A DNA stretch of 64,000 nucleotides, taken from sequence record PZ445488.1. One strand, given 5' to 3'. Shown here one piece after another: positions 1,162 to 60,919 of the stretch. The notes under the pieces are model-generated. The model ran no database searches and was not told the origin of the DNA. It saw only the letters and a list, made by a program, of their open reading frames with translations. Numbering within the stretch: the stretch's first letter is position 1; each line of letters begins with the position of its first letter. This DNA comes from a phage. The position numbers and the translations under genes are program-made.

Positions 1162-1424
1162 TATAAATTCTCTTTAAATGAAAATGCAGGACTTATTGAC
1201 ATTGCCTGCGCAAGCCCTCAAGGGGAACATAGGTTTTGGATATTTAACGACAGGATAACCATAAACCCGTCATCATACCAACCACGACTTAGACAGATAA
1301 CCTTTTTCTGACGCGTGATAGTACAAAATACATTCAAGAGGTACACCGTAAAACTGCCGGGGTCTTAAAACTATAATGATTCGCAAATCATTAATCAGAC
1401 AGTTCGACGGCTCCTCGATTTAAC

Positions 1425-1673
1425 TTACTTCAGGGTAATAATAAAATGACGTACTGCTTTACGAGCTGCTGAAGCCAAAGGCTTAGCATATTTCAGTTCA
1501 TCTTTTGCTTCCAGTTCAGTAGCCAGTGCGGCCTGTGCTGGGTTCAGATGTTTGAAATAACGCAGGATTTCAAGAGCTTCGGCTTCAACATCAATAGATG
1601 CGCCATAGTTTTCGTGACCGTTATTCCATGCGTTGCGTTGCAGTTCAAGAGCGTGTTGTAATTGTTTAATCAT
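1425..1673 (-). CDS. rIII: rIII-like lysis-inhibition accessory protein (assigned by size and synteny)
   Basis: 82 aa, matching T4 rIII length, immediately downstream of gene 31 as in T4; sequence identity not verified. Confidence 0.5.
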   Translation of the reverse strand: MIKQLQHALELQRNAWNNGHENYGASIDVEAEALEILRYFKHLNPAQAALATELEAKDELKYAKPLASAARKAVRHFIITLK

Positions 1674-3067: not shown

Positions 3068-4059
3068 TATTGAACCTTATTAATATAAGTTAACAGCTCT
3101 TTAGTTTGTTCCCAACTGATGCACGCATCGGTAACGGAAACGCCATAGGACATATTATCAGAAATTTTTTGATTTCCTTCATGTAGGAACGATTCTATCA
3201 TAATTCCTTTGACCAAATCATTAGCTGCTAAATTTTTACCAATACCAATTTGATTGCTATAATGCCCATCAGCGTTTGCATGGCTACAGTCAACCATTAC
3301 ATAATGATTCAGACCTACTGCCCTTGCTTTGTTAGAAGCTTCTTGAATATCAGAAGAATGATAGTTCGGGCCGTTGGTCCCGCCACGCAATACGATATGC
3401 GTATTCTGATTACCTTCAGCTTCAACAATGCCTACAGTACCATCGACGTCCATACCCATATACCGATGAGGCCAGGCGGCACTATACATCGCGTCTGTAG
3501 CTACTTTAATAGAACCATTGGTTGCGTTCTTAAAGCCTACGCACATCGGTAGACCTGAAGCAATTTCACGATGTGTCTGACTTTCAGTCGTACGGGCGCC
3601 AATAGCAACCCATGAGAAAATACCAGAAAGATACTTAATCGTGAATGGGTCTAATACTTCAGTTGCTAATGGAAGTCCCATACGTAGAAGTTTACGACAC
3701 AATGTTCGTGCAACTATAAGACCGTGGTTCATATCAAAACTTCCGTCAAGATATGGATCATTTACAAGACCTTTCCAACCTACGGTAGTTCGAGGCTTTT
3801 CAAAATAAACGCGCATCACTAACAGAACATTAGGAAGACGAGTTTGAAGTTCAGCCAGACGTTTGCCGTATTCAACAGCAGCAATAGGGTCATGAATTGA
3901 ACAAGGACCTACAACAATAAGTTTGCGTGGGTCTTCACCGTTCATAATCGAATTAACTTGTTCGCGATGAGAAGCCACTTGTGATGCGTAAGCTTCCGAC
4001 AAAGGAATAATCTCAGCCAGTTCTTTTGGAGAAATAAGTTTTCCGACGACAGGTAACAT
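3067..4059 (-). CDS. 3-deoxy-D-arabino-heptulosonate-7-phosphate (DAHP) synthase, AroG/AroF/AroH class I type
   Basis: 330 aa; LIVVGPCSIHD, RVYFEKPRTTVGWKGL, GARTTESQTHRE, CSHAN, IESFLHEGNQ and VTDAC motifs align with E. coli AroG catalytic residues. Confidence 0.85.
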   Translation of the reverse strand: MLPVVGKLISPKELAEIIPLSEAYASQVASHREQVNSIMNGEDPRKLIVVGPCSIHDPIAAVEYGKRLAELQTRLPNVLLVMRVYFEKPRTTVGWKGLVNDPYLDGSFDMNHGLIVARTLCRKLLRMGLPLATEVLDPFTIKYLSGIFSWVAIGARTTESQTHREIASGLPMCVGFKNATNGSIKVATDAMYSAAWPHRYMGMDVDGTVGIVEAEGNQNTHIVLRGGTNGPNYHSSDIQEASNKARAVGLNHYVMVDCSHANADGHYSNQIGIGKNLAANDLVKGIMIESFLHEGNQKISDNMSYGVSVTDACISWEQTKELLTYINKVQ

Positions 4060-4179
4060 AACAATCCTTAGGAGATATAAACAGATTCTGATTCAACAAT
4101 ACCTTTAACCGGATTAGACAGGCTAAGTTGGTAGTGCTCAGATTTATGACCATTCTCGATAGTAATGAGATAGCTCTCA

Positions 4180-4416
4180 TTATAGTGTTCCATATACTCG
4201 AGTTGCTTCAACAAGACCATCACTGCCTAATTTAAGATTAGTAATTTGGTCACCATCTTTAGGATTAACGATTATGAGAAAAGAACGTGGAGATTCTTGA
4301 ATAACTCGTAATGTTGCATCCTGGAAACGTTCAGACACTTTATTGATGAGTGCTTGAGCAAATTCTTTTACTTTAATCTGAAATTCGTGTACTGTAATTG
4401 GGTTTTCACTTAGCAT
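4180..4416 (-). CDS. hypothetical protein
   Basis: 78-aa ORF in early orientation. Confidence 0.35.
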   Translation of the reverse strand: MLSENPITVHEFQIKVKEFAQALINKVSERFQDATLRVIQESPRSFLIIVNPKDGDQITNLKLGSDGLVEATRVYGTL

Positions 4417-11950: not shown

Positions 11951-14206
11951 TTAAAGCTTACAAGCAGAACAATCTTCAGCTTTAGGTGTTTCTAATTCAT
12001 AGTCATCTGTACCTGACCCATCACGAGTGTTATGATAGTAGAGGTTTTTTCCGCCAAAGTACCAGAAGTAAAGCAGATCGTCAAGCATTACCGACATTGG
12101 CACTTTACCTTTCTCAAATACTGCAGGGTCATAGTAAGTATTAGCAGAAGCAGATTGGCACACCCATTTCAACATGATAGCAACTTGAGTCAAATAAGGT
12201 TTATTACCTTTCTTAGCAAGTTTCCACGCGTAGTCGTAAAGACTCATGTTATGTTCGATATTAGGAACAACCTGACGGAAGTTGCCTTCTTTAGATTCTT
12301 TAATACTTACAGGTCCACGAGGTGGTTCTATACCGTTTGTGCTATTTGAGACTTGACTGCTTGATTCACATGGCATGAGAGCACTAAGTGTACTGTTACG
12401 AATTCCGTGTTCTTTGAGTTCAGCTCGAAGTTCTTCCCAGTCACAGACGTAGTTCGGGGCTGCGATTTGGTCAATCTTTTTATTGTACCAGTCGATAGGT
12501 AATTCGCCTCTAGACCATTTAGTGTCTGAATAATACTCACAAGGTCCTTTTTCTTTGGCGAGTTTGATTGAAGCTTTGATAAGGCCATATTGCAATCTCT
12601 CGAACAATTCATGAGTCAAATCGTTAGCGTCTTCATATGAAGCAAAGTTAGAAGCTAACCATGCAGCATAGTTCGTCACACCGACACCGAGATTTCGACG
12701 CTTTTTAGCTTTTAAAGCTTCTGGAACTGGATAATCTTGATAGTCTAACAGGTTATCAAGTGCACGTACTTGTACTTCAGCAAGTTCATTAATTTTATCT
12801 TGGTCTTGCCAATCAAATTTATCTAATACAAAAGCAGATAACGTGCATAAACCAATTTCAGCATCAGGACCATTCACATCATTAGTTGGAATAGCGATTT
12901 CACAACATAAGTTACTCTGTCGAATTGGAGCTTTTTCACGAATAAATGGAGTGTAGTTGTTCGTGTTATCAACAAACTGTGGATAAATTCGAGCAGTACC
13001 AGAACGTTCAGTCATGAACAATTCAAAGAGTTCTAGTGCTTTGATTCTTTTCTTTCTGATTGTTGGGTCTTTTTCAGCTTTCTCATAAAGCTCACGGAAT
13101 TTATCTTGATCTTCAAAGAATGAGTAATATAGTTCGCCTGACATTTCGTGAGGGCTAAATAAAGTAATATAATCATTTTTACCAAGGCGTTCCATCATGA
13201 GGTCATTAATCTGAATTCCATAGTCCATATGTCGAATACGGTTTTCATCCACGCCTTTGTTATTTTTCAGAACTAATAGGTTCTCTACTTCTAAGTGCCA
13301 CATCGGATAATACGCTGTAGCAGCACCACCACGAATACCACCTTGAGAACAAGATTTTACTGCAGTTTGGAAATGTTTCCAGAATGGAATAACACCCGTA
13401 TGTCGAACTTCACCCATACCGATCTTAGAACCTTCTGCACGAAGCATACCAACGTTGATACCGATACCAGCTCGTTTAGAAATATATTCAATAATTGATG
13501 CTGAAGTTTTGTTAATAGATTTTAACGAATCACCGGCTTCAATAACTACACAACTAGAGAACTGGCGAGTTGGAGTACGAGCACCTGCCATAATTGGAGT
13601 AGGCAATGAAACTTGATGAGTAGAAACGGCATCATAAAACCGAATAATATGTTTCAAACGGTCATGAGTTTCGTCTTGATGTAAGGCCATGCCAATAGCC
13701 ATGATAGCAAACTGTGGAGTTTCATAAATCTTCCCAGTTGTTTTATCTTTAACTAGATATTTTTCTTTAAGCTGCATAGCACCAGCGTAAGTCAGATCAA
13801 AATCTCGCTCATGTTTAATCCGAGAATCAAGATAAATGATTTCTTCTGCAGAATATCTAGATAACAACTCAGGACCATATTTGCCTTCATTAACACAATA
13901 CGAGATATGGTCGATAAAAGCAGGAGGTTCAAACTGACCATACACGTCTTTACGAAGCGCAAACATTAATCCTTTAGCGGCAACATATTGATAATCAGGT
14001 TCTTCAACAGAAATCGAGTTAGCTGCAACTTTAATACAAATCTTCTGAATATCTTTGGTGCTCATCCCGTCAACAAGATGGGTCTTAATTTCTTCGTACA
14101 ATTCATATGGGTCGATTTGTGTTCCTTCACATTGCCAAGTTAAGACTTGAATAATTTTCTGTGCATCAAAATTTTGTGATACACCACTGCTCTTAGTTAC
14201 TTGCAT
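11951..14206 (-). CDS. nrdA: ribonucleotide reductase large subunit
   Basis: 751 aa; class Ia RNR features (ATP-cone N-terminus, catalytic NLCCEI...CES region, C-terminal redox-active Cys pair). Confidence 0.95.
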   Translation of the reverse strand: MQVTKSSGVSQNFDAQKIIQVLTWQCEGTQIDPYELYEEIKTHLVDGMSTKDIQKICIKVAANSISVEEPDYQYVAAKGLMFALRKDVYGQFEPPAFIDHISYCVNEGKYGPELLSRYSAEEIIYLDSRIKHERDFDLTYAGAMQLKEKYLVKDKTTGKIYETPQFAIMAIGMALHQDETHDRLKHIIRFYDAVSTHQVSLPTPIMAGARTPTRQFSSCVVIEAGDSLKSINKTSASIIEYISKRAGIGINVGMLRAEGSKIGMGEVRHTGVIPFWKHFQTAVKSCSQGGIRGGAATAYYPMWHLEVENLLVLKNNKGVDENRIRHMDYGIQINDLMMERLGKNDYITLFSPHEMSGELYYSFFEDQDKFRELYEKAEKDPTIRKKRIKALELFELFMTERSGTARIYPQFVDNTNNYTPFIREKAPIRQSNLCCEIAIPTNDVNGPDAEIGLCTLSAFVLDKFDWQDQDKINELAEVQVRALDNLLDYQDYPVPEALKAKKRRNLGVGVTNYAAWLASNFASYEDANDLTHELFERLQYGLIKASIKLAKEKGPCEYYSDTKWSRGELPIDWYNKKIDQIAAPNYVCDWEELRAELKEHGIRNSTLSALMPCESSSQVSNSTNGIEPPRGPVSIKESKEGNFRQVVPNIEHNMSLYDYAWKLAKKGNKPYLTQVAIMLKWVCQSASANTYYDPAVFEKGKVPMSVMLDDLLYFWYFGGKNLYYHNTRDGSGTDDYELETPKAEDCSACKL

Positions 14207-56441: not shown

Positions 56442-56936
56442 TCACAACTTATTAATATTTACTTTAATTCGCTTTCTTTTCTTGGAAGGAATTTGTTCTG
56501 GACCTTTATTTACGACTGCACCTGTAGTTGTTCCTGATGCAATAGCTTGAGGACTGCCACCTGAATCACCAGCAACCATATCCTCAAATAAAGGGAGTTC
56601 TTTAAATATTTCTTTCTGTTGTTCTTCAGTAATGTTATAGCGTGAAGCTACAGCACTCCAGGCAGACATCATTGAGGCCATTCCATTAAGACCTGGAACA
56701 GTACTCATCATTCGCTTCATTGAACGAACTGAAGCATGAAAAGGTGTATAAGCCGCTTTCTCTTCGGGAGTAGAAGGACGTTTAAGAACACTTCCACGTT
56801 CGTCGATTATTTTGGCTTCGTACGCTTTCCATTCGGTAAAAGGTTTTTGCATTAGTCGAATAAACTTATATGCGTAAACAGAATCTATTGCAGTGTTAAT
56901 AATACCCATAGGTACCTCCTGAGTATATTTAATCAA
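56442..56936 (-). CDS. hypothetical protein (61.1 position)
   Basis: 164-aa ORF; C-terminal basic KKRKRIK tail. Confidence 0.4.
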   Translation of the reverse strand: MIKYTQEVPMGIINTAIDSVYAYKFIRLMQKPFTEWKAYEAKIIDERGSVLKRPSTPEEKAAYTPFHASVRSMKRMMSTVPGLNGMASMMSAWSAVASRYNITEEQQKEIFKELPLFEDMVAGDSGGSPQAIASGTTTGAVVNKGPEQIPSKKRKRIKVNINKL

Positions 56937-57127: not shown

Positions 57128-57787
57128 TTAACCTCGATTCATAAATGCATTAAATATTTGGTCATCAACAGAAATTTCTAATTCGACTTCAATTGTTTCA
57201 GCCTTTTCTTCAGGTGGTAATTCGTATCCACACACTACAATTTTTTCATCGATATCAAAATATACAGAAGCAATACGATTAATGTTACTTTCAGTTAAGT
57301 CTAAATCAACATCAACATCTTTTTGACCTACACTTAAAGGATAACTAATACGAGTTATTTTATTATCTTTAACAAAGAGTCCACCAACATACTCTGTACT
57401 ACGTTTGAAGTTTACACGTTTCCGAATTGAAAGATATGATACATCTTTACCGTGAGCTCGGCTCATAGGACATAATGAATAACTAGAATAAGAGATGTCA
57501 AATCCTACGCCTTCAACATGTGCTAGAGTATCATGAGTAAACCAATTATAGTCGTATGCCAAATCCATTAAATTATAATATGTGAAAGGCACTGGATTAA
57601 CATCATATGTTGTACCTTTAAAATCTGCCCAGGCAACGATTTCGTTATCTTTAACAATTACAAAAATTACACCAATATGGTATCCGTTATTATTTTCATT
57701 CGGCGTTATATTATAACATTGTGCATTAGGAAATTTACCATATTTAAATGGCGCGTTTTTGTGCATGTAATAAATCATATTATTCAC
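57128..57787 (-). CDS. hypothetical protein
   Basis: 219-aa ORF, no motif recognised. Confidence 0.45.
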   Translation of the reverse strand: MNNMIYYMHKNAPFKYGKFPNAQCYNITPNENNNGYHIGVIFVIVKDNEIVAWADFKGTTYDVNPVPFTYYNLMDLAYDYNWFTHDTLAHVEGVGFDISYSSYSLCPMSRAHGKDVSYLSIRKRVNFKRSTEYVGGLFVKDNKITRISYPLSVGQKDVDVDLDLTESNINRIASVYFDIDEKIVVCGYELPPEEKAETIEVELEISVDDQIFNAFMNRG

Positions 57788-58073
57788 CTGTGATTTCGGT
57801 TACGATATCTTTGTTATCGAAATTAGGGTCACAATACAAAACATAGTTGTACTGCATGATACCGCCAGACTTAAGTTGTTCAACAACTTTATTAACCATA
57901 TTAGGACGGTCTCGTTTAGTGATGTTCATGATATCAGAGAAGATTTGTTGTTCAACATCTTCTTGATTTGCAGTCATTGACCACTCACAGAGGTCTTTAT
58001 CATAACCTGCTGTAACTGGAGCTGGTGCACATGATACTGCAAGTAAGATTGCTGCCAATGATAACTTTTTCAT
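57780..58073 (-). CDS. sp: spackle periplasmic protein (superinfection exclusion)
   Basis: 97 aa; signal peptide then AGYDKDLCEWSMTA...IMNI.KRDRP...QLKSGG.MQYNYVLYCD matches remembered T4 Sp. Confidence 0.85.
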   Translation of the reverse strand: MKKLSLAAILLAVSCAPAPVTAGYDKDLCEWSMTANQEDVEQQIFSDIMNITKRDRPNMVNKVVEQLKSGGIMQYNYVLYCDPNFDNKDIVTEITGE

Positions 58074-58136
58074 TTTAACTCCTTAGTTGATTTGATAGGA
58101 CTACTATACTATAGTCCATCTATAATGTAAACAAGT

Positions 58137-58385
58137 TTATTCTTTTTCGCGAATAATAATTACTTGTTGAGGCTGCTGAGCAGATTTCTTTTCGGCAACG
58201 ATAGACCAAATTAAAGTTCCAATCCAACCAATCATCGTCCAGTTAAAGAGTAAAGATACAAAGAAGATTGCTGTTGTGCTTTTTGTGCCACGAATAAGTG
58301 CGATTACCCAAGGCAACATGTAAATGATGATTGAACCAATACCTGCGATTAAAACTGCTACTGAACTAGCTACGAATAATTCCAT
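58137..58385 (-). CDS. small two-helix inner-membrane protein
   Basis: 82 aa; two hydrophobic segments (VAVLIAGIGSIIIYMLPWVIALI and AIFFVSLLFNWTMIGWIGTLIWSIV). Confidence 0.5.
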   Translation of the reverse strand: MELFVASSVAVLIAGIGSIIIYMLPWVIALIRGTKSTTAIFFVSLLFNWTMIGWIGTLIWSIVAEKKSAQQPQQVIIIREKE

Positions 58386-58446
58386 GTTAATTTCCTCTTG
58401 ATTTGTTATGTTTATAGTATCTTATTTTAACTTTGGTGTAAACCGA

Positions 58447-58815
58447 TTAATTAAATTTGTTTAAACGTTCAATACACTGGACATAGTTATTCGCGATTTG
58501 TTTCTGGGAAGGCTCTTTACCAGTTGTTTCAACATAGCGAATGAATGCGATTTCAGTAGCCTGTAGACAATGTTCTTTAACGCGTTGTTCTTTTGACAAT
58601 GCTACAGTATCAGAATCACGATAACGTTGAGCATGAGCATCAGCTTTAATCATTCGATTACCTACAGTAACCGGGTCTTCCACTTCAACTTTAGGTTGGT
58701 CATACTGTTTAACATTCGGATTGTAAATCAATTGGCCAACGTTATTAGGGATAAAGCCATGAGCACCACATCCGGTTAATCCAAATACCATTGCTAAAGT
58801 GATTAATTTTTTCAT
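58447..58815 (-). CDS. lipoprotein (signal peptide with lipobox LTGC)
   Basis: 122 aa; MKKLITLAMVFGLTGCGA... Confidence 0.55.
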   Translation of the reverse strand: MKKLITLAMVFGLTGCGAHGFIPNNVGQLIYNPNVKQYDQPKVEVEDPVTVGNRMIKADAHAQRYRDSDTVALSKEQRVKEHCLQATEIAFIRYVETTGKEPSQKQIANNYVQCIERLNKFN

Positions 58816-58885
58816 TTCAATTTCCTCTGTAGTTGATAGAAAGATAGTAACGCAGTATGTGGTGCTTGTAAACAGTTATTTAAAA

Positions 58886-59095
58886 TTATTGAAAATCTGC
58901 TTCGAAAACTTTCTCGTCATTAACAAATGCTTTAACTAATGCGTTGTTCACTTCGGCAAGTTGTACCGTAACCCACTCGATTTCTTCGCGATCACCTGAT
59001 AACATGATATCTTTAGTGAACATCTCACCGCTTTTAAACCAACCGATAAAAGTAACTTTAGTTAATTTGCCCATATTTCCTCGCAAAATGCCCAT
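58886..59095 (-). CDS. hypothetical protein
   Basis: 69-aa ORF. Confidence 0.3.
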   Translation of the reverse strand: MGILRGNMGKLTKVTFIGWFKSGEMFTKDIMLSGDREEIEWVTVQLAEVNNALVKAFVNDEKVFEADFQ

Positions 59096-59388
59096 TCAGC
59101 GTGATAAACTGTAGCACCTTTAGTATCATTCATTTGAACTACGTCTACTGGAGAAATTACTCGATAGAGACGTGGTTCACCTCCATAAGAGCGTGCTGCT
59201 CGTCCTGCATAAATCTTTGCTAAACCGATATCTTCAGTAAAGAATACACGATTCAAGTTTTTCTTACGTCCAGTTTCAGACAGAACTCCTGTTTCTTCAG
59301 GAGGACAAAGCATGTTTTCGATGTTAGCTGAACTACTTGAACCGTGATAAAAAATCTTAAATTCTGCTTTGCAATCGATGGTTTCCAT
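59062..59388 (-). CDS. hypothetical protein
   Basis: 108-aa ORF with promoter upstream. Confidence 0.4.
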   Translation of the reverse strand: METIDCKAEFKIFYHGSSSSANIENMLCPPEETGVLSETGRKKNLNRVFFTEDIGLAKIYAGRAARSYGGEPRLYRVISPVDVVQMNDTKGATVYHAEWAFCEEIWAN

Positions 59389-59453
59389 TTTGTTCTCCTC
59401 TTGGTTGGTGTAAGTACATCATATCATGCCTAGAGGAAGATGTAAACCCCGAA

Positions 59454-59471
59454 AGGAGACCGAAGTCTCCT
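59454..59471 (-). terminator. tetraloop hairpin aggagac-cgaa-gtctcct after gene 41
   Basis: perfect inverted repeat 5 nt after gp41 stop, followed by a GTTTAC promoter. Confidence 0.5.
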
Positions 59472-59476
59472 TTTTA

Positions 59477-60919
59477 TTAAAATTTTAACTCATTGGCTAA
59501 GCTATCTAGGTCAGCACGTGTTGCTTTGGCTTTACCTACGCGTTCCGTACGATTCACCTCTGCCTGACGCATCTGAGCACCTGCGTTTTCATTTACTGTG
59601 TTAGGTGTGTTCATGCCTTCTTGCTCAATCTCAATCCATTTCTGGTTGCCTTTACGTACACCCATCAAGAACTTGTTCCACTTATTCTTATCACCGTATC
59701 GTGATTTGATTTGTTTGATAAGTTGTTGTTCAGCTTGTGCAAGTTCTTCGGTTTCAATTACGGCCAACATGAAATCTGCCGTTGCTGGTAAACCTGCTGA
59801 TTCTGCGATATCACTCATGTTCATGTCTGAAGCATCCCATGCTGCACGTCCTACTTGGGCTGCAGTCCATAGAACTGTTTCAGATTCTACTGCTAATGCA
59901 CGAAGTTCTTCTGCGATAGCTTTAACTAATGTGTAGCTATTTTCAGTGTAAACTCTGATACGACAAGACCCACAAATACCTAAGTAATCAACCATGATTA
60001 CAGATGGCACAAAGTTCTTCTTAAGTTTTAACTCATTAAGCAATGCACGGAATGTATTAGCATTAGCTCCACCAGTAGGATACTGTTTAACTACTAAACG
60101 TCCTAATGTGGATTTTGAACGCCATTTTTCCATCTTGGCTTTATATTCAGCATAAGATACGTTACCATCATCGATATCATCGAGCGATACGTCAAGCATA
60201 TTTGCATCTATACGCTTAGCACAAACTTCTTCAGCCATTTCCATGGAAATATAAAGAACATTATGTCCTGTTTGAAGATAATCTGCAGCAAGTGAACAAA
60301 GGCCTAAAGATTTACCAACGTTAACACCGGCCATTAAAACGTTCAGTGTACCTGTTTCTGCGCCACCTTTGGTGATTTTATTAAGAATGTTTAATTTGAA
60401 CGGGACCTTACGTGCTTTATTTAGATAAGAAAGCCAGCGTGCTTCATAGTCTTCCATCCAGTCATGTCCAACATAACTATCAAACGAAATTGAAAGTGCT
60501 TGACGCATAATATCAGGAATAGCTCCTACGTCAGGCATTTTCTTGTTACGTTGTTCTGGAGGTAGTTCAGCATTAGACTGAATCTCAATGATTTTGGATG
60601 TAGCATTATACATCGCTTTTTGCTGGACATATTTCTCAGTTTCTTTAACCAACCATTCGTGGTCTTCAGGAGTATCAGCCAATTTTTCAATTAGGTCTGA
60701 AGTTCCTTTATATTCGGCTTCAGTTAAAGAACTGTTATCTAAAGCCACCTTTAACGCATTGATAGATGGCATTGCATTATATTCGTTAACGTGGCTCTTT
60801 ATAATTTTAAAGACGTTTTTTGCCGGTCCACGCTCAAAATACTCAGAATCCATATAAGGCCAGACCTTAGAAAAATAAGCCTGGTCATATACTAGATGAG
60901 ACAAAATAATTTCTACCAC
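59477..60919 (-). CDS. 41: replicative DNA helicase gp41 (DnaB family)
   Basis: 480 aa; Walker A GVNVGKS, RecA-like core; T4 gp41-like. Confidence 0.9.
   Translation of the reverse strand: MVEIILSHLVYDQAYFSKVWPYMDSEYFERGPAKNVFKIIKSHVNEYNAMPSINALKVALDNSSLTEAEYKGTSDLIEKLADTPEDHEWLVKETEKYVQQKAMYNATSKIIEIQSNAELPPEQRNKKMPDVGAIPDIMRQALSISFDSYVGHDWMEDYEARWLSYLNKARKVPFKLNILNKITKGGAETGTLNVLMAGVNVGKSLGLCSLAADYLQTGHNVLYISMEMAEEVCAKRIDANMLDVSLDDIDDGNVSYAEYKAKMEKWRSKSTLGRLVVKQYPTGGANANTFRALLNELKLKKNFVPSVIMVDYLGICGSCRIRVYTENSYTLVKAIAEELRALAVESETVLWTAAQVGRAAWDASDMNMSDIAESAGLPATADFMLAVIETEELAQAEQQLIKQIKSRYGDKNKWNKFLMGVRKGNQKWIEIEQEGMNTPNTVNENAGAQMRQAEVNRTERVGKAKATRADLDSLANELKF

Follow-up and report, generated by a model that had tools for sequence, protein, structure and literature searches.

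The spackle gene (sp) of T-even phages encodes one of the textbook exclusion factors of phage T4, the other being Imm, and in the phage DNA studied here two further small genes for envelope-targeted proteins lie next to it. The question raised by this locus is whether these genes also act in superinfection exclusion and what part the lipoprotein encoded by one of them may play. A first-pass annotation of the window, the whole stretch of 64,000 nucleotides that was analysed, had described an 82-aa protein with two membrane helices and a 122-aa lipoprotein with an LTGC lipobox, each with its own GTTTAC promoter and both upstream of and next to sp. It had put both forward as candidates for further exclusion or receptor-masking functions. 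The anatomy was described correctly. The ORFs occupy exactly 58137..58385 and 58447..58815, the first with two Kyte-Doolittle hydrophobic stretches and the second with its lipobox at residues 13-16; the GTTTAC-N18-TACTAT motifs stand at 58873..58844 and 58443..58414; and sp, recognised by its match to PF25676, follows at 58073..57780. What had been missed is the identity of the two genes, neither of which had been recognised as an orthologue of imm or imm.1.

Layout of the locus

The features of the locus are as follows.

60919..59477, minus strand: gene 41 helicase, first in the order of transcription
59388..59062, minus strand: ORF of 108 aa between gene 41 and dmd
59074 or 59095..58886, minus strand: dmd, upstream of the imm.1-like gene
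58844..58873, minus strand: early promoter of the imm.1-like gene, GTTTAC-N18-TACTAT, from a pattern search and a promoter scan
58447..58815, minus strand: imm.1-like gene for a predicted lipoprotein of 122 aa, with LTGC ending in Cys16 and with Cys83 and Cys114 (ORF, DUF5481, phrog_1754)
58414..58443, minus strand: early promoter of imm, GTTTAC-N18-TACTAT, from a pattern search and a promoter scan
58137..58385, minus strand: imm, for a superinfection immunity membrane protein of 82 aa (PF14373, phrog_1039)
58103..58132, minus strand: early-type promoter of sp, GTTTACA-N17-TATAGT, from a promoter scan
57780..58073, minus strand: sp (spackle), 97 aa, periplasmic inhibitor of the gp5 tail lysozyme (PF25676, T4_Spackle)
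57128..57787, minus strand: AdfA (61.2), anti-DarT factor, downstream of sp

For both the imm.1-like gene and imm, the ORF is taken at its longest, starting from the earliest start codon downstream of a stop. Identity across the region is 100% with Escherichia phage CEV1 and approximately 98% with many genomes of Mosigvirus (RB69-like phages), and the window is that of a Mosigvirus, an RB69-like T-even phage. The annotations given in its Mosigvirus relatives are 'immunity to superinfection membrane protein' for the 82-aa gene and 'spackle' for the gene beside it. The locus is thus the imm.1–imm–spackle exclusion cluster known from T-even phages. Many relatives already have it annotated, and in itself it adds nothing new.

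The window holds 17 GTTTAC-N18-TACTAT motifs, where 0.71 were expected from shuffles, and all but one of them (16 of 17) lie on the minus strand. The motifs of the imm.1-like gene and imm each stand 28 nt 5' of the respective start codon, and both genes have a strong ribosome-binding site, GAGGAAATT, 4-5 nt before the ATG. We are confident that the imm.1-like gene, imm and sp are early minus-strand genes, each with its own promoter and transcribed in that order.

The 82-aa protein and Spackle

The 82-aa protein scored 57.2 bits with PF14373 (Imm_superinfect; cutoff 27.9), with all 42 model positions covered, and matched phrog_1039, 'immunity to superinfection', at 9.9e-31. Its alignment with T4 Imm runs over the full length (65% identity in 83 columns, E 3e-37); the C-terminal QVIIIREKE is common to both, and R32 and W49 align with R33 and W50 of the T4 protein. 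The hydropathy profile (Kyte-Doolittle, 19-residue window, threshold 1.6) places the two hydrophobic stretches at approximately residues 1-34 and 40-60. Judged by these matches, the 82-aa protein is an orthologue of the classical protein of superinfection immunity, T4 Imm. For this gene, the earlier suggestion of further exclusion functions beside sp therefore proved right, and the 122-aa lipoprotein stays a candidate. By tblastn, Imm was found in 808 phage records at 808 places, one copy per record; no second copy of imm was found in the window or in any of these matching records. A PDB sequence search with Imm returned no relative of solved structure.

The product of sp matched PF25676 (T4_Spackle) over its full length at 1.1e-42 and is 66% identical to T4 Sp, which identifies the gene as a true orthologue of sp.

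Both proteins have well-described counterparts. In T-even exclusion, Imm acts at the inner membrane and Sp acts against the gp5 lysozyme in the periplasm (PMC7677548; review PMC6832632). In a 2026 preprint, T4 Imm is reported to co-purify with gp29, the tape-measure protein, to be located by cryo-EM on the helical-bundle domain of gp29, and to be weakened in exclusion by the R33A and W50A mutations (bioRxiv 10.64898/2026.03.06.709160). Plasmid-expressed Imm by itself excludes T4 (bioRxiv 10.64898/2026.03.06.709160), and the activity of Imm therefore does not require Imm.1. For the phage studied here, homology of Imm was established from sequence and the mechanism is carried over from T4. Imm would insert in the inner membrane and, when a further T-even phage adsorbs secondarily, bind its tape-measure protein, which would keep the inner-membrane channel shut; since this channel would stay unopened, the incoming DNA is proposed to be left stranded in the periplasm. 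Sp, by analogy with its T4 counterpart, would inhibit the gp5 tail lysozyme in the periplasm. The cluster is very probably the set of genes with which an RB69-like T-even phage excludes superinfection at the level of the envelope.

The 122-aa protein and its predicted lipid anchor

The 122-aa protein matched DUF5481 at 37.9 bits against a Pfam cutoff of 27 and phrog_1754, a family with no function assigned, at 5.9e-28. Its identity to T4 Imm.1, a protein that begins with MKIAILVIALGLAGC, is 32% (E 1e-19). By these criteria the protein is an orthologue of T4 Imm.1. A literature search found no paper mentioning DUF5481 or giving a function for imm.1.

The N-terminus has MKK as its n-region, followed by a short hydrophobic core and then, at residues 13-16, by the lipobox LTGC, in which Cys16 is the lipobox cysteine. 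Twelve positions are invariant across six divergent Imm.1 members: Y31, N32, P33, K36, Y38, V45, Y65, R66, S68, E76, C83 and C114. A lipobox with a residue other than Asp at position +2, together with the C-terminal Cys pair, was found in the window protein, T4, STP4-a, VR26 and the metagenomic relatives P0005 and P0008, and the residue that follows the lipobox Cys in Imm.1 members is G, V, V, A, A or S, with Asp in none. In E. coli, the Lol rule holds that a residue other than Asp after the lipobox Cys predicts outer-membrane sorting. Applied to Imm.1, the rule predicts that the lipoprotein is sorted to the outer membrane.

A separate question from the role of Imm.1 is whether the protein is lipidated at all. 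Signal peptidase I might instead cleave it, perhaps behind AHG20, and release a soluble periplasmic helical protein much like Sp. The metagenomic relative P0002, 45% identical to the window protein, carries Phe where the lipobox Cys would be (LAGFSAHA), so that lipidation is not universal in the Imm.1 family, and the window protein itself has A-H-G just past the Cys. T4 Sp contains LASC, which resembles a lipobox, but its mature form of 75 aa is soluble (PMC7677548), and a lipobox match alone is therefore no proof of lipidation. Against this, five of the six divergent lineages retain the lipobox Cys, and the sequences of T4, P0005, P0008, VR26 and STP4-a, read by eye, offer a poor signal peptidase I site after the Cys. 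The short hydrophobic core is also typical for lipoprotein signal peptides. Release as a soluble protein is improbable on this evidence, and we treat Imm.1 as a predicted lipoprotein in what follows.

Predicted structure and family size

For the 122-aa protein, AlphaFold2 gave a model in which confidence is low overall (mean pLDDT 62). The N-terminal 48 residues fall below pLDDT 50 and are disordered in the model, and helices are placed at residues 48-67, 75-98 and 104-120, with pLDDT 85-89 over residues 80-120. C83 and C114 fall in the predicted helices 75-98 and 104-120; a periplasmic disulfide between the two residues is thus a reasonable inference, and it probably clamps a helical hairpin. 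The predicted architecture of Imm.1 is a flexible tether of approximately 30 residues, containing the invariant YNP..K.Y motif, followed by the helical hairpin.

With this low-confidence model, Foldseek matched only the protein's own family in BFVD and returned only noise from the PDB, and a PDB sequence search with Imm.1 was empty. Spackle was not among the PDB structures returned, and hhalign between Imm.1 and Spackle pairs the signal peptides alone. Descent of Imm.1 as a paralogue of Spackle was ruled out on these two results.

A word-based search for homologues of Imm.1 gave three matches, an exhaustive HMM search of 1.84 billion representative proteins gave nine, mostly small Imm.1-like proteins, and a scan of viral contigs gave only seven loci; the family is therefore tiny. 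The three HMM matches with contigs that we examined, P0002, P0005 and P0008, all lie in T4-like gene contexts. Within phrog_1754 are T4 Imm.1, STP4-a ORF039 and VR26_045, with E values of 1e-43 to 1e-47. The link of STP4-a ORF039 to Imm.1 consists of this common phrog_1754 match and a weak BLASTP match to VR26_045; against the DUF5481 profile, ORF039 gave no significant match beyond the signal peptide.

Conservation of Imm.1 and receptor masking

Conservation of the two ORFs was confirmed by tblastn, which found Imm.1 in 657 phage records beside the 808 for Imm, and both proteins passed the Pfam gathering thresholds. In Tequatrovirus and Mosigvirus, Imm.1 is present in 657 records and Imm in approximately 657, counted in corresponding identity bands. 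Within these genera the protein is close to fixed: Imm.1 is at least 95% identical in 502 of 502 matching Tequatrovirus records, T2, T4 and T6 among them, and in almost all of approximately 155 Mosigvirus records. Between lineages it diverges quickly. The window and T4 proteins are 86% identical for gp41, 66% for Sp, 65% for Imm, 65% for AdfA, 55% for Dmd and 32% for Imm.1, and in every lineage pair the conservation of Imm.1 is about half that of Imm, corresponding to approximately twofold faster evolution.

These figures bear on the earlier suggestion of receptor masking, by which Imm.1 would act from within the periplasm to shield the phage's receptor in the outer membrane, in the way T5 Llp shields FhuA, or in the manner of Cor. 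In favour of masking, the protein is a predicted outer-membrane lipoprotein, early and with its own promoter, and its evolution is faster than that of the genes around it, which are 55-86% identical to their T4 counterparts where Imm.1 reaches 32%. T2, T4 and T6, however, use different receptors. Near-fixation of Imm.1 across these three phages and the remainder of the 502 Tequatrovirus records thus argues against masking. Searches of Pfam, NCBIfam and PADLOC gave no match to Llp, Cor or any other family, the model found no fold match in BFVD or the PDB (a weak test with a low-confidence model), and a relative without the lipid anchor, P0002, exists. For the lipoprotein, receptor masking is accordingly very improbable, and this part of the first-pass annotation did not hold. 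The pattern points to a target that is common within a genus. The target of Imm.1 would be a conserved component of the injection apparatus or of the envelope, and not a receptor.

Genomic contexts of imm.1 and imm

The imm.1-then-imm order, with gaps of 7-61 nt, was found in T4, the window, STP4-a and three metagenome contigs (L022, L023 and L024). In T4 the order is 43, imm.1, imm, 42, with 7 nt between imm.1 and imm; this stretch has a single GTTTAC...TACTAT motif, which sits upstream of imm.1. Gelderlandvirus STP4-a has the pair in T4-like order and with tight spacing. Two of the metagenomic T4-like contigs carry it flanked by 43 and 42, the third has it after a frd.3-like gene, and in the window, as a Mosigvirus, it lies between dmd and sp. 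The intervals that hold the pair in one phage are occupied differently in the other. The dmd-sp interval of T4 contains gene 61.4, an unrelated gene, and the 43-42 interval of Mosigvirus JK45 contains genes for arabinose-5-phosphate isomerase, a GlmU-like protein and phosphoheptose isomerase, with no imm in that interval. Since the same pair recurs between differing flanks, imm.1-imm behaves as one unit, set into three contexts or more. It is a conserved two-gene cassette with three genomic contexts (43|42, dmd|sp and a frd.3-like neighbour). This cassette behaviour and the predicted lipoprotein architecture are what is new here; the rest of the locus is known.

The direct placement of imm.1 upstream of imm was not seen in distant members of the VR26, JS98 and X20 type. 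Gaprivervirus and Dhakavirus have the reversed order, with 43, imm, a membrane ORF of approximately 40 aa and then the phrog_1754 lipoprotein. In Winklervirus X20 and in Kanagawavirus PEi20 and IME523, the lipoprotein directly follows gene 43 with no adjoining imm. A scan of the whole 172-kb genome of Serratia phage X20 with the Imm profile found no Imm, while the phrog_1754 lipoprotein and sp are both present; as a control, the profile detected a remote Vibrio-phage homologue in the same search. Since X20 has the lipoprotein without Imm, the lipoprotein can exist without Imm and has a role independent of it. The idea that Imm.1 is an obligate partner of Imm is weakened by X20 and by the ability of Imm to function alone.

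Possible roles of Imm.1

These arrangements would also be expected if the Imm.1-like lipoprotein had nothing to do with exclusion. It would then be an ancestral early envelope protein of Tevenvirinae, acting, for example, in host-envelope takeover, in the neutralisation of a periplasmic or outer-membrane host factor or in the timing of lysis, and would have come to adjoin imm through the plasticity of the region downstream of gene 43. Placement after gene 43 without an adjacent imm in X20, PEi20 and IME523, the lack of Imm anywhere in X20, the reversed order with a small membrane ORF between the genes in Gaprivervirus and Dhakavirus, and the function of Imm alone from a plasmid all agree with such a protein. 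Ancestry at one locus, however, hardly explains why the order and adjacency of the pair are kept in three contexts. The 7-nt spacing of the T4 genes behind a sole early-type motif upstream of imm.1, and the agreement between Imm.1 and Imm record counts in Tequatrovirus and Mosigvirus (657 and approximately 657), also speak against a role apart from exclusion. We consider such a role quite possible, if somewhat short of probable.

Imm.1 is a phage-restricted family and is inherited with imm in the form of the imm.1-then-imm cassette. The alternative that we develop here is that Imm.1 is a third factor, acting in the periplasm against secondarily adsorbing T-even tails, or one that protects the envelope from them. 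We offer this assignment tentatively and would not put it at even chances. A more specific version, in which Imm.1 is a tethered periplasmic lipoprotein inherited together with imm on a mobile cassette of two genes, would make it the third exclusion or envelope-protection component of the set; it would intercept some conserved part of the tail tip of the incoming phage, or stabilise the envelope where injection takes place, and would add to the action of Imm in the inner membrane and of Sp at the level of the cell wall. This version is possible, though on the doubtful side.

The value of the locus lies in a sharper hypothesis on T4 imm.1, a conserved gene of the best-studied phage. Imm.1 is nearly universal in Tevenvirinae, is predicted to be early and to face the periplasm, and travels with imm through three contexts. 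If its role in exclusion is true, T-even exclusion would have three layers and not two.

Comparison with known systems

HK97 gp15, a prophage exclusion protein, is a small inner-membrane blocker of tape-measure-dependent genome entry and in this respect is Imm-like (bioRxiv 10.64898/2026.03.06.709160); the likeness is an analogy only, drawn from the published description. With T5 Llp and Cor, Imm.1 shares the character of a small early phage lipoprotein, predicted to reside in the inner leaflet of the outer membrane. It differs from them in that sequence and fold similarity are lacking, its conservation does not track the receptor, and the anchor is dispensable in one relative. T4 Spackle (gp61.3) and Imm.1 are alike solely in small size, export, helices and a conserved Cys pair.

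The closest comparison is with T4 itself. T4 Imm, at 83 aa, and the 82-aa protein of the window have the same two hydrophobic segments and keep the residues R33 and W50 of the T4 numbering, and the imm gene of the window, like its T4 counterpart, has an early-promoter motif upstream. The surroundings of the gene differ. T4 imm lies between genes 43 and 42, whereas the imm of the window is found within the dmd-sp interval, with imm.1 on one side and sp on the other; T4 imm follows imm.1 after 7 nt, whereas that of the window follows after 61 nt and has its own promoter. A membrane ORF of 47-49 aa comes after imm in T4 but does not adjoin imm in the window, and in Mosigvirus JK45 this ORF remains near gene 43. 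T4 Imm.1 has a VVNQSDVGK stretch after the Cys and a second Cys pair (C33/C44), both of which the window protein lacks, but the two proteins share the lipobox signal peptide, the YNPNVK.Y and Y-R-x-S motifs and the C-terminal Cys pair, and their genes hold the same position directly upstream of imm.

Genes around imm and gene 43 in related phages

A small ORF of 47-49 aa, which follows imm in T4, VR26, and the metagenome contig, and gene 42 of JK45 lie at these positions:

L002 (T4) 3134..3283, membrane ORF
L003 (Mosigvirus JK45) 13871..14014, membrane ORF
L012 (phage VR26) 2349..2492, membrane ORF
L022 (metagenome contig) 1287..1490, membrane ORF
L003 9544..10260, JK45 gene 42 (dCMP hydroxymethylase)

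The ORF encodes a single-pass membrane protein with the C-terminal end ...KYEC(F/I)N. In T4 it overlaps the imm stop codon, is unannotated in that T4 record, and the same order of imm followed by this ORF is seen in VR26 and the metagenome contig. In JK45 the ORF remains in the gene 43-proximal region and therefore has not moved along with imm.1 and imm. The JK45 interval between genes 42 and 43 is filled with sugar-nucleotide genes, encoding an arabinose-5-phosphate isomerase, a GlmU-like protein, and a phosphoheptose isomerase, and T4 gp42 shares only ~25% identity with the dCMP hydroxymethylase of JK45. We take these sugar-nucleotide genes and the divergent gene 42 to be consistent with arabinosyl-hydroxymethylcytosine modification of the RB69 type.

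In Serratia phage X20, sp comes directly after gene 41 without dmd in between, and the phrog_1754 lipoprotein gene is kept, positioned after gene 43. No Imm_superinfect gene was detectable across the whole X20 genome (L021, L026-L029).

Genes flanking dmd and sp in the window

Three ORFs and one intergenic gap are of note here:

59389..59476, gap between gene 41 and the 108-aa ORF, counterpart site of an extra gene at 3946..4320 of the Mosigvirus relative L001
59062..59388, − strand, 108-aa ORF, phrog_2110 member
57128..57787, − strand, 219-aa AdfA-type ORF
56442..56936, − strand, 164-aa ORF

The 108-aa ORF, which lies between gene 41 and dmd and whose end overlaps the dmd start, belongs to phrog_2110 (1.2e-59), a family of unknown function. 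It is labelled 'putative ADP-ribosyl transferase' in one relative; Pfam Arr-ms (rifampin ADP-ribosyltransferase) gave only a sub-threshold match (E 0.089). An additional hypothetical gene of 375 nt separates gene 41 from this ORF in most Mosigvirus relatives (ATK47, JK45, and others) but is missing from the window, CEV1, and 348Ecol098PP. This explains the alignments in two pieces with ~430 extra bases.

Directly downstream of sp, and overlapping it by 8 nt, the 219-aa ORF is covered over its full length by Pfam AdfA (anti-DarT factor A; 2.2e-118, profile search). By this match, the early cluster that holds sp also includes a known counter-defence gene, AdfA. Its T4 counterpart is gp61.2, at 65% identity.

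The start of the 164-aa ORF is provisional, as the listed start is TTG and the ORF overlaps the preceding gene. The ORF as a whole matches phrog_2086, and its C-terminal third matches phrog_1823 (5.9e-26). The latter profile, at 54 positions, is about the same size as the 165-nt T4 gene 61.1, and the window ORF appears to be an extended or fused form of that small gene.
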